This document shows, piece by piece, positions 54,501-60,500 of a DNA stretch of 64,000 bases. Location of the stretch: the sequence record LC799789.1; one strand, written 5' to 3'. Each line of letters begins with the position of its first letter. Within the stretch, counting starts at the first letter, position 1. Source of the stretch: a plasmid. The position numbers are program-made.

Positions 54501-57500
54501 ATTTATCGCGTTCACTTGTTTCAAAAAATTATAAAATTATATCAGGGTTTGGACTTGGAGTAGGTAGTAGTGTTATTAATGGAGCTCTTGATGAAATTTA
54601 TAACACTAAGTATAGGCATGTCAGTGAGCATCTTGGATTATTTCCTTTTCCTCAACATGATGCTGGGGAAAAGTCTCTAGCTAAACGTTGGACTGAAAAT
54701 CGTGAACAAATGATCAGTGAGGCTGGGATCTGTATTTTTATATTTGGTAATAAATTAGTTAATGGTGAGGTAGTACTTGCATCTGGAATGATGGAGGAAT
54801 TTCGGATTGCTAAAGAAAGAGGAAAAGTAATAATTCCAATTGGTTCTACGGGGTTTGTTGCAAAAGAAATTTTTGATGAAATGAAAGAGTCAGGGGACTA
54901 TTCATATATAAACGATTATTGGAATGATTTAGAGAACGAAGAAGATGTTATAAAAGTTTTTAATACAATAAATGAAATTATTGAAGGAGTTAGATTTAGA
55001 TAATGGCAACAAAAGTATTTATTTCATTTCGTTTTAGTGATGGAAAAGAGATTAAAGATGAACTAGTTGATTTATTTGATGAATCTACTGAGGTAATTAA
55101 TAGATCAGAAGATGTTGATAGAAGTCAAATGAGTAAGGACACTATTCAGGAATATCTATATGAGAAGTTAAAAGATACATCGGTTACAATTGTATTATTA
55201 ACTCCAGAGGCCGTTTCTTATAGAAAGAATTGGATTGGAAATTACGATGATTGGATTTATGATGAACTTAGATACTCCTTGGAAGATAGAAATAACAACA
55301 GAGCAAATGGCGTAGTAGCAGTATATACAGATGATGCTAAAGATATGATACTAGAAAGTAGTTCACACTATTGTGCACATTGTCAAGAAACTAAATCATG
55401 TAGAACTTTGAAATCTTTTGACAATTTAGCACGAAAGAATATGTTGAATATAAAGCAAAGCTATAAGAAAAATCCATGTAATGATCTTTATGATGATAGT
55501 CATGACTCTTATATTTCTTTAGTAAGTTTGGAGGAGTTTAAACAGGATTATACTAAATATATTGATAATGCAAAAGATAAAAGAGATAGGCTACATGAAT
55601 TTAATATATATAAAAGAATGTGAAGAGCATTGATTTAGCATAAATTGTCTTTAGAATAAATGAAAAGGCAACACTTTTCTGTACAAGATTTATAAAGTGC
55701 TTTTGTTTGGACTAATGTCAAATATTTAGACACAAAGATAAAAAAGAAAAACGGAAATGGCTGTTTTTCTTTTTTATCTCATGTCCATAAAATAGTTCAT
55801 TTCTGGACACTGCTATTTTGGTATGATTTTTCTCTAAAAGAATTGAAACACGTGTCCATAAATCCATCACAAGTTCTATGTCAAATTAATCACCTTGGAT
55901 AAAGTTATGGAACAATGAAGTAAAAAAAAGAAAAGTGATTACCTCTCCTTTAACTACCGGAAGATTAACGTTTCAAGGCATTCTCAGAAAATCTGTAAGT
56001 AATTCAGCACTAAAACAATTTCTTAAAAATTGATCTTAGTAAACCAGAATCATCATCACCTGTATTGTAATATTCCTCATGGCTCTCATATATATTATCT
56101 TTTGAAATACTATTTTTAAAACCGCACTCAGTACATTTCCATGTATATTTATAGTCATCAAAATTATTTTGAGAATTCAGATGTGCCCCGCAACGGTCAC
56201 ACCACCAATCGGTATCTGGGAATCTTTCTGTCATAGTATATCTCTCCCTACATATTTAAAAATTTTTATAATTAATTTCAACATTTACCATCCAATATTA
56301 TACCTCTCAACTCCTTGTTGTAATAAATACTCTTTGAAATCTTTAATAAACTCATCTTCCTTATCAGGTGCATTACCATAATGACTAAATGTTCTAGTAG
56401 ACTCTTCCCAAGAAAAATTATAAACATATTCTTTCTCTGTTGAATCCCAGTCTGCATCTCCAAAAAATGTTATTTGTCCAGCTACCAATTCTATTTCTCT
56501 AGTATATTCCCCCGTATCTTCATCTACAATTGGAATCTCTACGCTAAAATCGTATGTTTTTTCGAATTCATATGACTTGAAATTACTATCATTATCTATT
56601 CCTACCATTTTCCTCACTCCTTTATTTTTTATTAGCATATAAATTTTAATCTTCTATAACAGGAAACTGCGCTTGCACTTCTTGGCGAATATTTTCAACG
56701 TTATTTGAAAAATCTGAAATTTTTTGAATAATTTGTTGAACAATCTCTTTTTCAATGGGATTTCTAATCTCATCTAACTCTTCAATACTAGGAATCACCA
56801 CGTTTTCTTCAGATTCATAAATATTATTTAGTATCATTAATAAATCATCTCTAGAAAGGTTTTCTGGCTCCACATTATTCTCACCTATAACAAACTTTGA
56901 TTTTCCTGAATTAACTATTAAGACTTTCATATATTTCTCCTTTCTTTTTATATGTTTCTATTCCTGCTTCCATTGCTTCTACAAATTTTTCATAGCTACT
57001 TTCAGTTGTATCTGATTTTGTAGAGATAAGATGAGAAGAAAATTCACCGGTAAGTACGCGATATCCCTTTTCTTTATCTTTCGTAGTCACTATTAGATAA
57101 TCTGGTTCCAGTAATGCTCCTAATGTTGAATTATGTGTAACCACAAAAACAGTGCTGCTTGCAGACAAATTCCTTATAGCATCTCTTAATTCCTTCCGAA
57201 TGTATTCATTATCAAGTGACGCTTCGGGTTCATCGATTAAAATTATTGGTTTTGTTTTTGCTTCTTCTAATCTCATCATTAGAGCAAATCCCACAGCCTG
57301 TCCCCCAGATGCTGGTACACCATCTGAATCCAGCAGGTTAACTTCTAAATGCAATAGATATTCTTCTAAAATAGAAGGATTAAAGAAACTTCTTTTTTTC
57401 AAATTCCTTAAAAATGTAATATACTGCCCACTTTTATAGGGAACAATTAAATCATCTTGAACTGCTTCACTTGTACGATCTTTTCTAAACTGAGTAGCAT

Positions 57501-60500
57501 TTATAAACGGAGATAGCTTCACAATAATTTGGTATCCATAAATTTTTTCTTTTTTTATTTCAGTATTACAGACTATTTTTTGCATGAAATTATTAATTTC
57601 TTTTTCAATCTGATGTTTTTGAATTATCTTTGAAAACTCACAATCAACAACAGGGGTAATCCCAGTTTTAGATTGAACTATTTTTTTTACAGAACCTAGT
57701 ATGTCATTTACTTTTTCTCGAACTTTGTTATTCTGTTGTTTCTGAACAAACAAATTCCTTACTTCACTATATGTCTCAACAAAAACTCTCCTTTTTTCAA
57801 CTGAATTACTTAACAGCTCCCATAAATCTGGACTATTAATTAAATCAAGTAATTTGTACAAGTGTGTTTCTAAGTTTTTTGTGGAAATTTCTTCAAGATT
57901 CGATTCTTTAATAAGTTGATATTTGGAAGTTGAGTTACTTGTAGTCGAATCTTTGGCGAATTGCTTCACACTTTCAACAAATTTTTCTACGTCTTGGTTA
58001 AAATCTTCTTCATTATTTTTTAGATAGTCTTGAATAGCAGAAAACTGCGAGTCATACCGTTTTTTCCATATATCTAACGCATTTTTCCCTTGTTCTGTTC
58101 TTTGTTTTTTTATAAAATCATTGGCATTTGATGTTTCAAATTGAGCTATCTCATAAATATCTTCATAATCATAATATTTTTTTATCGTTTCTAAAAAATT
58201 GGTTTTCAGTACCTCGTTTACCAACAATTAAATTTAATCCAGTTGAAACAGTGTGATTTTCAATATCGATTACGTCCCTCAAATATCTAAGGTTTATACC
58301 AACTTTTGTTTTATCCATTAAACAATTCTTTATTTCTTGAAACGAGCAATTGTCAATTTGTAAGTACGTATTTTTATTTTTTAATATTTCTATATTCTTC
58401 CTTTTTTCTTCAGGATCATTATCATCAGCGTGCGCATCACTAAATAATACTGGTGTTAAAGCATCTTCTATTCTATAAAAAGTTTGAAATTTCAATTGAT
58501 TTGCTACTCCACCAACAGAACAAATAGATTCCAATTTTTCTGGTACTGATAAGGCGTTACTTTTTCCTAGTTCAAAGATATAAATTCCATTTTCCCAATT
58601 ACTCATGTGAGTACAAAAATCTTCAGTAGATACTTTTCCGTTCTGTCCTAAATTTTGGGTAGATAGCCATTCAGAAAAATGAACTAGATTAGGACTATCT
58701 TCTTCTGGAAAAATAATATTTACATGTCCCTCTTCAAGACTCAGTTCTATACCTGGAAAAACCTTAGTATTTGGCAAATCATACTGGATCTGTTTAAAAT
58801 TACTTTCATCAAATAAATCGTGATTAGTAATAGCAATTGCGTCTAATTCAGCTGCTCGAACATATTTCTTTAGCCACTCTGGAGAATAAGAAAAATCATA
58901 ATCTTTATGACTAGAAACCGTGTGGATATGAAAATCAATTTTTTTAACCATATGTAGACCTCCATAATAATTTGGAAACTCATGTCTTGATTATATCATG
59001 TAAACGCTGACTAATATGCTTGATATCCGCCATACAAACAACCACTCAGTGACATTGATTTTAGAACTTGTTTGCGGCAATATAAATCCTCCTCTAATTT
59101 ATTTAAATTAAGGATCTTCGAAATGGTTCTGTTGCAAAGTTTTAAATAAAGAATAAAATCCCTTACGGTATCTATGATTTAAGCTGGGATTCCCAATAAT
59201 ATCTTGATTTCAGTACAGACCGAAAACCCGAAGAGAGTGCCTTCTTTTCGGGTTTTCTTATATAATCCTCGGATGGCTTCCATGCCTTTAATCGTGGTAG
59301 AGGCAGTGCGTAAACTTCGATAGAATTTATTGCGTCTCTTTACTGGACGATGGTCTTGTTCAATCAAATTATTCAGGTATTTAATGGTACGATGTTCTGT
59401 CCCTTGATAAAAGCCGTATTCTTTTAGTTTCTTAAAGGCACTTGTAATAGAGGGGGCTTTATCTGTGACTACAACCTTCGGTTCATCAAACTGCTTCACT
59501 AACCGCTTAAGAAAAGCATAGGCTGCTTGTGTGTCCCGTTTTTTACGTAACCAAATATCCAAGGTTAAACCATCTGCATCGATGGCTCGATACAAATAAT
59601 GCCATTTTCCTTTAATTTTGATGTACGTTTCATCCATTTTCCATGAATAAAAGGATTTTTTATTTTTCTTTTTCCAAATTTGATAGAGTAGTTTGCCATA
59701 TTCTTGCACCCAACGATAAATCGTCGTATGAGAAACGTTAATGCCACGATCATATAAGATTTCTTGAACTTCACGATAGCTAAGGTTATAACGAAGATAG
59801 TAGCCCACGGCTACAATAATCACATCCTGCTGAAATTGCTTTCCTTTAAAAGGATTCATCGTCATTCCTCCTGCTATCTTTTTCTATTATTCTACCTTAT
59901 TTGATAGTAGATTTAAAACTTTGCAACAGAACCGTTAATTATATAGACTGAAAATTTTGAATTTTCAGAATAGAACAACTTAAAAGTACTGACAAAATTT
60001 TTTAAAGGGGCAATATTAATGTTCTGAGATAATCAAATCTTACCGAAAATCTCAAAAGTCCAATGTGACACAAGCTGATTCTGTCACATTCGTTAAAATC
60101 GCTCCATCCTTAGAGGCTCTAAGAGGAAATCACTTTTCTTTTAGGGCCTTTTTTCTATAGCTTGTTTAAATGTGACTTATTATCTGTTATAATCATATTA
60201 AGTAACATTTGAGAGGGGACTAAAAATGAAGAGCGTGGAACCGATTCGCGACAAAAAAAAGATCGATGCCATGAAGGCCATTTTGGCTTCCGGAAAATAT
60301 GGGCAACGAAATTTGGTGCTTTTTTCAATCGGGATCAATACAGCCTATCGAATCTCCGATTTAAGGCAGTTGAAATTAAGTGATGTGTTAGAAATTTCCC
60401 GTGGGCGGGTGATTGTCAAAGAACGTCTGGCCATGAAGGAACAAAAAACGGCCAAACATAATTCGGTCTTCATTTCAAACAAATTACGAAAAGTGATTCT

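Follow-up and report, generated by a model that had tools for sequence, protein, structure and literature searches.

A PHP-ABC ATPase gene of the PDC-M49 defence candidate family, split by a P-loop deletion and followed by a lineage-restricted gene pair, on an Enterococcus-like plasmid

Results

A four-gene cassette with a split first gene

We analysed a minus-strand cassette of four genes, here termed A, B, C and D, that lies at 56010-58951 of a 64,000-nucleotide stretch of the plasmid sequence record LC799789.1 (the window, to whose positions all coordinates refer unless another locus is named). An earlier reading of this DNA, made from the sequence alone (the original prediction), had described an operon at these coordinates in which a gene for a PHP phosphoesterase fused to an ATPase precedes three small genes, and all five of its open reading frames (ORFs), two of which make up the split gene A, were found as it described them. 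The features of the cassette are as follows.

56911..58951, minus strand: gene A (PDC-M49A), a PHP domain plus an ABC/SMC-type ATPase; identified by PADLOC, Pfam, identity to database protein P0001, an AlphaFold (AF2) model and fold matches
58169-58951, minus strand: first part of gene A as found, an ORF of 260 residues
56911-58227, minus strand: second part of gene A as found, an ORF of 438 residues that overlaps the first part in another frame
between 58206 and 58207, minus strand: 2-bp deletion in the Walker A motif of gene A; from alignment with plasmid pEc378 and frame translations
56646..56930, minus strand: gene B (PDC-M49B), 94 residues, adjacent to A; identified by PADLOC (3.3e-40)
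56285..56608 (ORF to 56638), minus strand: gene C, 107 residues, no family; nine clusters; follows A-B
56010..56234, minus strand: gene D, a 74-residue zinc ribbon; Pfam zf-Sec23_Sec24 (1.3e-6); 23 clusters

Gene A is broken by a deletion in its P-loop

The two halves of gene A do lie in different frames, as had been noted, but the break is not in the A7 tract at 58167-58173 to which it had been assigned; it falls after 58206, about 35 nt away. In a base-by-base alignment with the Enterococcus casseliflavus plasmid pEc378 (NZ_OM621815.1, locus L001), which carries an uninterrupted gene A coding sequence of 680 residues, the dinucleotide CC (plus strand; pEc378 14307-14308) is missing after 58206. 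The missing bases are two of the GGG glycine codon in GGT ACT GGG AAA ACC (G-T-G-K-T), and their loss removes the Gly-Lys of the Walker A motif (GKRGT[GK]T) and shifts the frame. Across the junction, frame 1 reads GLNLIVGKRGTENQFF and frame 2 reads LKTNFLETIKKYY; when two bases are put back after GGTACTG, the product reads GKRGTGKTNFLETIKKYY, a canonical Walker A. The P-loop had looked deviant (GKRGTEN) because the 2-bp deletion falls inside what is otherwise a canonical GKRGTGKT. The repaired product has 680 residues, rather than the 677 of the fusion proposed before, and is 100% identical to database protein P0001, which belongs to a cluster of 223 members.

The original prediction had allowed that the split might be a sequencing indel, in which case the plasmid would carry an intact, working PDC-M49 gene. 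In keeping with such an artefact, the deletion sits in a short C3 (G3) run next to an A4/T4 run, and one other indel of the block shared with pEc378, at 55922, sits in a long A/T homopolymer. However, losing 2 bp of a 3-base run is atypical for a homopolymer error, 91 blocks of independent public assemblies contain exactly the 260-residue truncated product, and the truncated gene in the NCBI genome GCA_021311015.1 stands in the same IS6-A'-A''-B-C-D-ThsB context (at the single locus displayed). As the truncated product is on record in 91 blocks, the split allele is real and widespread: it is a pseudogene allele that circulates in many assemblies and not a one-off sequencing error, and we regard an artefact as very improbable.

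Recoding by a +1 slip around GGT ACT GAA AAC C was considered as a way to restore the protein and was rejected, since the resulting P-loop, read from the sequence, is still without Gly-Lys. As even a slip of this kind leaves the P-loop without these residues, the gene A copy in this plasmid can no longer encode a working ATPase.

A and B match the two genes of PDC-M49

The repaired A protein matched two PADLOC models of PDC-M49A, PDLC04678 (E=0, 1171 bits, residues 1-679 on model positions 1-680 of 681) and PDLC04679 (E=0, 1265 bits), and B matched a PDC-M49B model, PDLC04681, over its whole length (3.3e-40, residues 1-94 on model positions 1-94 of 94). The PDC set comprises 145 phage defence candidates (PDCs) found through guilt-by-embedding in BREX, DISARM and type I restriction-modification (RM) loci (Payne et al. 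2024, bioRxiv 10.1101/2024.01.29.577857), among which PDC-M49 consists of two two-gene cassettes, FAM_00021>>FAM_01695 and FAM_00021>>FAM_02682 (Payne et al. 2024, supplementary file 8). The locus in the window resembles these cassettes in its full-length matches to both hidden Markov models, its A-then-B order, the overlapping stop and start codons, and the embedding of its relatives in RM and BREX loci; it differs in that A is frameshifted while B is intact, and in that C and D, which follow B, lie outside the two-gene definition. On the strength of the profile matches, we assign the A-B core to the catalogued candidate family PDC-M49. The PDC-M49A family comprised 149 clusters at 50% identity (E<1e-30), nearly all with proteins of 665-705 residues, and 40 of the 72,556 plasmids in PLSDB carried a full-length A-like gene.

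B is, as described earlier, an acidic protein of 94 residues (isoelectric point (pI) 4.3), and the first 20 nt of its gene overlap the end of A. It has a strand-rich N-terminal part and a long conserved C-terminal helix (NPIEKEIVQQI...), and its ratio of nonsynonymous to synonymous substitution rates (dN/dS) of 0.11-0.21 indicates purifying selection; a Pfam search with B returned only ABC-3C CTD9 at E=0.07, which is not significant. In all of the full loci that we examined, B comes directly after A and its start codon overlaps the stop of A (L001-L005, L007, L008, L010-L012, L023, L025, L027 and L030), down to 27-30% identity. The hosts include Pisciglobus, Streptococcaceae, S. caviae, S. mitis, Fructobacillus and S. 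aureus plasmids. Even a metagenomic A protein of 30% identity has a B partner, of 98 residues (hhalign 93.9% probability; PADLOC), and E. faecalis plasmids carry a PDC-M49 paralogue of 27% identity that is likewise an A-B pair. The paralogue pair (L025 4001-6326, and L031) corresponds to models PDLC04680 and PDLC04682 and has resolvases and Mu-like transposition genes at its flanks; in FDAARGOS_324 the paralogue is annotated in several fragments.

Several of these pairs are embedded in known defence loci: A-B lies between HsdR and HsdS/HsdM-like ORFs in L007 and after HsdR in L010 (type I RM), and directly downstream of BrxL in L023, the kind of embedding by which PDC-M49 was defined. Other neighbours of A-B are a type III res helicase (L003), methyltransferases (L008), and an Abi protein and RelE (L025). 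In the Streptococcus 'caviae' locus (L005 7563-9471), a DUF6414 protein and an AAA (Cdc48/AAA_5-like) ATPase are encoded directly downstream of A-B; they may represent a further pair of uncharacterised defence genes in that island.

A is only distantly related to Ppl and TrlF

The original prediction had likened A to the Ppl defence system, which would make A a PplA protein and the small genes incidental. Both proteins unite a PHP domain, at the N-terminus, with an ABC-type ATPase in one polypeptide, the NCBIfam TrlF model gave 2.3e-27 on A, and an 873-residue TrlF protein from an E. coli plasmid, which served as a positive control for the Ppl model, matched both Ppl (1.5e-36) and PDC-M49A (2.3e-17). 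However, whole A had no PADLOC Ppl match at E<=0.01, and its isolated PHP region reached only 12.7 bits (E=0.006) over residues 4-45; the TrlF match (NF045780) scored 96.1 bits against a cut-off of 350 and joined residues 4-454 to model positions 7-519 of 944. A is also about 200 residues shorter, at ~680 against 873-944 residues for Ppl/TrlF. Ppl is a single-gene system (PMC11482910), whereas A has B alongside it in every full locus examined, and TrlF, known from the Photorhabdus temperature-restriction locus (TRL) with TrlG and TrlR (PMC7554251), pairs with those proteins where PDC-M49A pairs with the unrelated small B. We therefore consider it highly improbable that A is Ppl. As the E. coli TrlF protein matches both models, Ppl/TrlF (Gao et al. 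2020; NF045780) is a distant sister family of PDC-M49A, with the same domain order, homology detectable at both ends and the same occurrence on plasmids and in defence islands. Ppl itself was still called uncharacterised in 2024 (PMC11482910).

TrlF-family (Ppl-like) PHP-ATPases were common on conjugative IncF-type plasmids of Enterobacteriaceae, many of them from Klebsiella and E. coli. On the E. coli plasmid NZ_CP101224.1 (L024 4965-7586), the TrlF gene lies near genes for a DUF3800 protein, an AAA ATPase, vapB and a GNAT/DUF1778 toxin-antitoxin pair.

Domains, motifs and predicted fold of A

The repaired protein divides into a PHP domain (about residues 1-215), an ATPase head N-lobe (227-270), a helical insert (277-460) and a head C-lobe (464-680), which bears out the proposed N-to-C architecture in the ORFs, in an alignment of 35 homologues (50-83% identity) and in the AF2 model. 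All six motifs reported earlier (HIHT, GIELS, SDAH, SGGQ, ILIDEPEASLD and VVTHN) were recovered, and each lies in invariant columns of the alignment. Invariant in all 35 homologues are the PHP ligands H8, H10, H44, D45, E69, H76, D172 and H174, which supply the metal-ligand motifs of the PHP superfamily (HxH, H/D, E, H, DxH), and the ABC residues G244-T251, Q271, S549GGQ552, D574-E575, D581 and H607. The family thus has the Walker A, Q-loop, SGGQ signature, Walker B, D-loop and H-loop of an ABC/SMC ATPase; Walker A, though invariant in the family, is destroyed in the copy on this plasmid.

Pfam returned two matches with A above cut-off and no others, SMC_N (42.7 bits; cut-off 40) and AAA_21 (35.6 bits; cut-off 27). 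The PHP assignment rests on the motifs, on structure prediction, on TrlF/CehA similarity and on one homologue that bears PF02811; NCBIfam also gave Spaf_1101 and a hint of a CehA/McbA metallohydrolase. Searches of solved structures by sequence gave generic ABC nucleotide-binding domain matches only, at E about 1e-4 or worse. The AF2 model (predicted local distance difference test (pLDDT) 83.9) has a PHP barrel and an ABC head split by the helical insert of ~185 residues. Foldseek matched the model to the Smc head, JetC, RecN, cohesin heads, Rad50 and RNase AM, and its fold is also like that of the repair ABC ATPase UvrA; the nearest folds of the PHP domain are the DNA endonuclease EndoQ, the proofreading PHP domain of PolC/PolIII-alpha and RNase AM, an exoribonuclease.

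The insert had been described as a long coiled coil. Its longest predicted helix, residues 384-430, has 47 residues, and we found no hinge in the insert and no CxxC motif anywhere in A, so that the long antiparallel coiled coil with a hinge or CxxC zinc hook that characterises SMC and Rad50 proteins is not present.

The likeness to repair ABC ATPases (UvrA, RecN, Rad50) and to EndoQ, together with the name 'histidinol-phosphatase' that some RefSeq homologues bear, would suit a housekeeping enzyme, either a histidinol phosphatase or an SbcCD/RecN analogue in DNA repair. A fused ATPase, however, has no part in histidine synthesis, and there was no his operon around A in the loci examined. The gene is often pseudogenised and is embedded in RM and BREX loci. 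Because its distribution is patchy and it is borne on mobile genetic elements and in defence islands, A is not a housekeeping PHP protein; the original prediction had named this as one of the outcomes that would overturn it, and of the alternatives weighed here it is the one to which we give the least credence.

Gene A is broken repeatedly in relatives

A second, independent break at the P-loop was found in Fructobacillus tropaeoli (NZ_DF968082.1, L008 5740-5770), in which an extra T in a T-run right after the Walker A GKT shifts the frame to give GKRGTGKTFFY*; this break could be coincidence, sequencing error or counter-selection. In a metagenome-assembled genome of Clostridia (RZYW01000075.1, L006 5141), an A gene of 99% identity is interrupted at residue 277 by an element with a transposase-like ORF, and the PDC-M49 paralogue of E. 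faecalis CP028284 is fragmented. The repeated disruptions fit a costly or autoimmune enzyme, in what is a small sample. In a Lentilactobacillus locus (L009), the match to A covers residues 1-187 only and lies close to the end of a short contig.

These breaks, in which A is lost and B stays intact (this plasmid, L008, L006 and CP028284), are also consistent with a toxic A and hence with a plasmid addiction module of toxin-antitoxin type, in which the nuclease A would act as the toxin and the acidic B as a labile antitoxin. B is indeed small, acidic and translationally coupled, the genes are frequent on plasmids (the 40 in PLSDB with a full-length A-like gene), and they adjoin resolvases and other toxin-antitoxin genes. 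However, many copies are chromosomal and lie inside RM or BREX loci, an embedding that is the defining defence signature of PDC-M49, and an ATP-dependent enzyme of 680 residues would be unusually elaborate as a toxin. The addiction reading also overlaps with a defence reading, as abortive-infection systems act like toxin-antitoxin modules. We consider an addiction module unlikely, though not negligibly so.

C and D form a separable, lineage-restricted pair

Of the three small proteins that the original prediction had listed as unknown, B is the second gene of PDC-M49; the other two, C and D, are unlisted and form a separable pair. C probably starts at M11 (ATG at 56608), which is preceded by GGAGTGAGG; as its homologues never exceed 107 residues, this is the likely start, and C would have 107 rather than the 117 residues first proposed, with gaps to its neighbours of 37 and 50 nt in place of the 7-20 nt spacing. 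It is acidic (pI 4.1), with predicted beta-hairpins and a C-terminal helix, in an AF2 model with a pLDDT of only 60, and has only nine clusters among 5.8 billion proteins, with no match in Pfam, PADLOC, NCBIfam or PHROGs. D is the 74-residue zinc ribbon that had been recognised before: its match to Pfam zf-Sec23_Sec24 exceeds the cut-off of that family, and it has cysteines C12, C15, C34 and C37, an acidic linker and an amphipathic C-terminal tail, GLLRSIFKKLF. Searches of PHROGs with B, C and D gave nothing useful, and D had no match in cultured-phage genomes. With a dN/dS of 0.28-0.58, C shows purifying selection, and so does D, at 0.08-0.21.

C follows A-B in pEc378 (L001), L010, L011, L012, L027-L029 and L030. 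D is missing from L011 and L012, and in L030 C is without its start (5'-damaged) and D is without its tail. The A proteins from these loci with C group in one subclade, with identities of 75% or more to the A protein of the window; those of loci with A-B only are at most 68% identical to it. The original prediction had made the co-occurrence of the small ORFs with PHP-ATPases a test of its proposal, and the result is divided, as B is present in every full locus examined and C and D, where they accompany A-B, are confined to this subclade. The simplest reading of the distribution is that C-D was acquired once by the enterococcal PDC-M49 subclade and has mostly been retained since. The suggestion of a new multi-gene variant could thus apply, in a weaker form, only to the lineage-restricted C-D add-on, which is the only part of the cassette not yet catalogued, and not to the A-B core.

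C and D also occur without A-B. In two JGI metagenome contigs (L013 4514-5154 and L014), they are arranged head to head with no PHP-ATPase gene; the small Rep3 plasmid on which they lie also has genes for a ToxN toxin and an epsilon antitoxin. The start of L013 has a second, partial copy of C, which a circular contig may explain. D alone was found in prophage-like regions, where it lies between HNH and terminase genes or in groups of small early-type genes, as well as at other places. Its core (residues 1-52) is 67-81% identical in unrelated contexts, and the tail (GLLxSIFKKLF) occurs, in the alignment, only in copies accompanied by C, which argues that C and D work together. D homologues in L021 (4001-4327), L022 and L015/L016 (4001-4189), with cores 75-81% identical, lie between an HNH endonuclease and a small terminase gene and within a run of small phage-like genes. 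The neighbours of D homologues in L015, L017 and L019 had no detectable similarity to C.

These occurrences raise the alternative that C-D stands outside the A-B system, as an independent small mobile module (or, for D, a phage-derived gene) that merely shares the cassette. The divergent C-D pair on the Rep3/ToxN plasmid and the solitary copies of D speak for it, as do the absence of D in L011, the 5' damage to C in L030, a D tail that tracks the presence of C and not of A, and the rarity of the association: C or D was found in one of the 72,556 PLSDB plasmids, and C together with D in one of the 40 with an A-like gene. On the other side, the A-B-C-D order has survived divergence of the subclade down to 75% identity in A and recurs in at least four flanking contexts (this plasmid, L010, L027 and L030), the four genes are co-directional with short gaps, and C and D are under purifying selection. 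We put the chances of such an independent module at about even. A bolder proposal is that C-D is an undescribed two-gene module that the subclade recruited for sensing, regulation or membrane targeting, with a four-component PHP-ATPase defence system as the result, and that the P-loop breaks here and in L008 reflect selection against an autoimmune ATP-dependent nuclease; this we offer as a tentative idea that is rather doubtful.

The cassette is a mobile block beside Thoeris

The surroundings of the cassette contain the following features.

55782..59124: the A-B-C-D block, 3.3 kb, 99.25% identical to pEc378 (blastn)
59124..59960, minus strand: IS6-family IS1216-like element with a 228-residue transposase (ORF 59179-59865) and inverted repeats
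55736-55752/55763-55779: perfect 17-bp AT-rich inverted repeat with a 10-nt loop (repeat search)
52332-55623, plus strand: complete type I Thoeris locus, with ThsB (409 residues), ThsA (SIR2-SLOG, 470 residues) and ThsB (206 residues)

The flanks of the block differ between the two plasmids, with Thoeris here and a Fic gene in pEc378, and from this comparison 55782-59124 is the unit that moved between plasmids. The IS1216-like element abuts the promoter side of the cassette (terminal inverted repeats 59122-59159 and 59899-59936) and is 98.3% identical to the IS1216 copy of pEc378. Genes for a tyrosine recombinase and a Fic protein that lie beside D in pEc378 (L001 10167-11579) are found across IS1216 here (59934-61347), and the Fic ORF is shortened (157 against 232 residues in pEc378); the displaced genes point to an IS1216-mediated rearrangement.

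As had been reported, the cassette converges on a Thoeris locus, and this locus is genuine. PADLOC gave full-length matches to ThsA (8e-198) and the two ThsB proteins (1e-189 and 4e-119), Pfam gave STALD, SIR2_2 and TIR, and two different TIR proteins lie on either side of ThsA. A bidirectional terminator had been proposed between the two loci. A consensus terminator scan called none, and a hairpin just 3' of D was no more stable than shuffled sequence (z 0.56); the perfect 17-bp inverted repeat, which lies between the convergent loci exactly at the left (downstream) edge of the mobile block, could be such a terminator. The 64-kb sequence as a whole resembles Enterococcus conjugative plasmids, and Thoeris and the PDC-M49 cassette together are a small defence island on a conjugative plasmid. 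The earlier description of an uncharacterised defence module stands insofar as the cassette is uncharacterised, on a mobile element and beside Thoeris, and falls insofar as its core is already catalogued as PDC-M49.

Discussion

The explanation that we favour overall, and think probable though well short of certain, is that the cassette belongs to the PDC-M49 family, in which a PHP-ABC ATPase (A) and a coupled small protein (B) act in defence, that the copy on this plasmid is dead, and that C-D is separable from it. By analogy with Rad50, SMC, RecN and UvrA-type ABC proteins, A would dimerise through ATP-driven engagement of its heads, the dimer would sense or clamp invading nucleic acid, and the PHP domain fused in cis would then cut it. 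The similarity to EndoQ and PolC favours DNA as the substrate, and RNA is possible given the similarity to RNase AM. A would in effect be a single-chain counterpart of SbcCD/Mre11-Rad50, or of defence proteins that combine nuclease and ATPase, such as Gabija GajA. The role proposed for B, which is translationally coupled to A, is to gate the enzyme or direct it to its target, whether as an inhibitor that infection releases or as a subunit that confers specificity.

Several points weigh against this explanation. The gene A copy in this plasmid cannot function by the proposed mechanism. The Pfam PHP model was not significant on A, even at E<=10 on the N-terminal 233 residues. As the insert is short and has neither a hinge nor a zinc hook, A is unlikely to extrude loops as SMC proteins do or to tether as Rad50 does, and it may be only in the heads that the analogy applies. 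A literature search for PDC-M49 returned no paper that names it and no anti-phage or anti-plasmid phenotype, and according to a 2026 survey the majority of PDCs are without experimental validation. What we propose for the substrate (DNA or RNA), the trigger and the function of B is purely inferential. A search for 'PHP domain', 'ABC ATPase' and 'anti-phage' together returned nothing, and wider searching gave only mentions of Ppl and Ophion.

The comparison of A with known systems has two sides in each case. With SbcCD/Mre11-Rad50 it shares an ABC head interrupted by a helical insert, a metal-dependent phosphoesterase nuclease and, in the case of Rad50, a head that is among its fold matches; unlike theirs, which is calcineurin-like, its nuclease is of the PHP type and fused in cis, its ~185-residue insert is without a zinc hook, and it is a mobile, conflict-type gene where theirs are housekeeping genes. 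Gabija GajA/OLD, PARIS AriA and Septu PtuA are likewise AAA_15/AAA_21-type ABC ATPases coupled to a nuclease, and A had weak PADLOC matches to AriA, PtuA, HEC-01A and mad3; their nuclease, however, is a Toprim or HNH domain, C-terminal or separate, whereas that of A is an N-terminal PHP. The head of A matches JetC of Wadjet and Smc in fold, and its small partner recalls a kleisin or LmuC of Lamassu (whose ATPase is LmuB); unlike these systems, A has no long coiled coil or hinge and no separate effector, and B has no detectable similarity to a kleisin, a winged-helix domain or LmuC.

For this plasmid, an automated PADLOC or DefenseFinder call would overstate the defence repertoire because the ATPase gene is dead. 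Resequencing of the A7 tract, which the original prediction had proposed, would not settle the frameshift because it lies in the P-loop and not in that homopolymer. The C-D pair is a small lead on the accessory genes of defence cassettes. PDC-M49 itself, in which a PHP nuclease and an SMC-like ATPase are joined, has ~150 clusters at 50% identity, from streptococci, enterococci and staphylococci among others; should it prove to defend, it would form, with Ppl, a PHP-nuclease branch of the ABC-ATPase-nuclease immunity that includes Gabija, PARIS, Septu and Lamassu.

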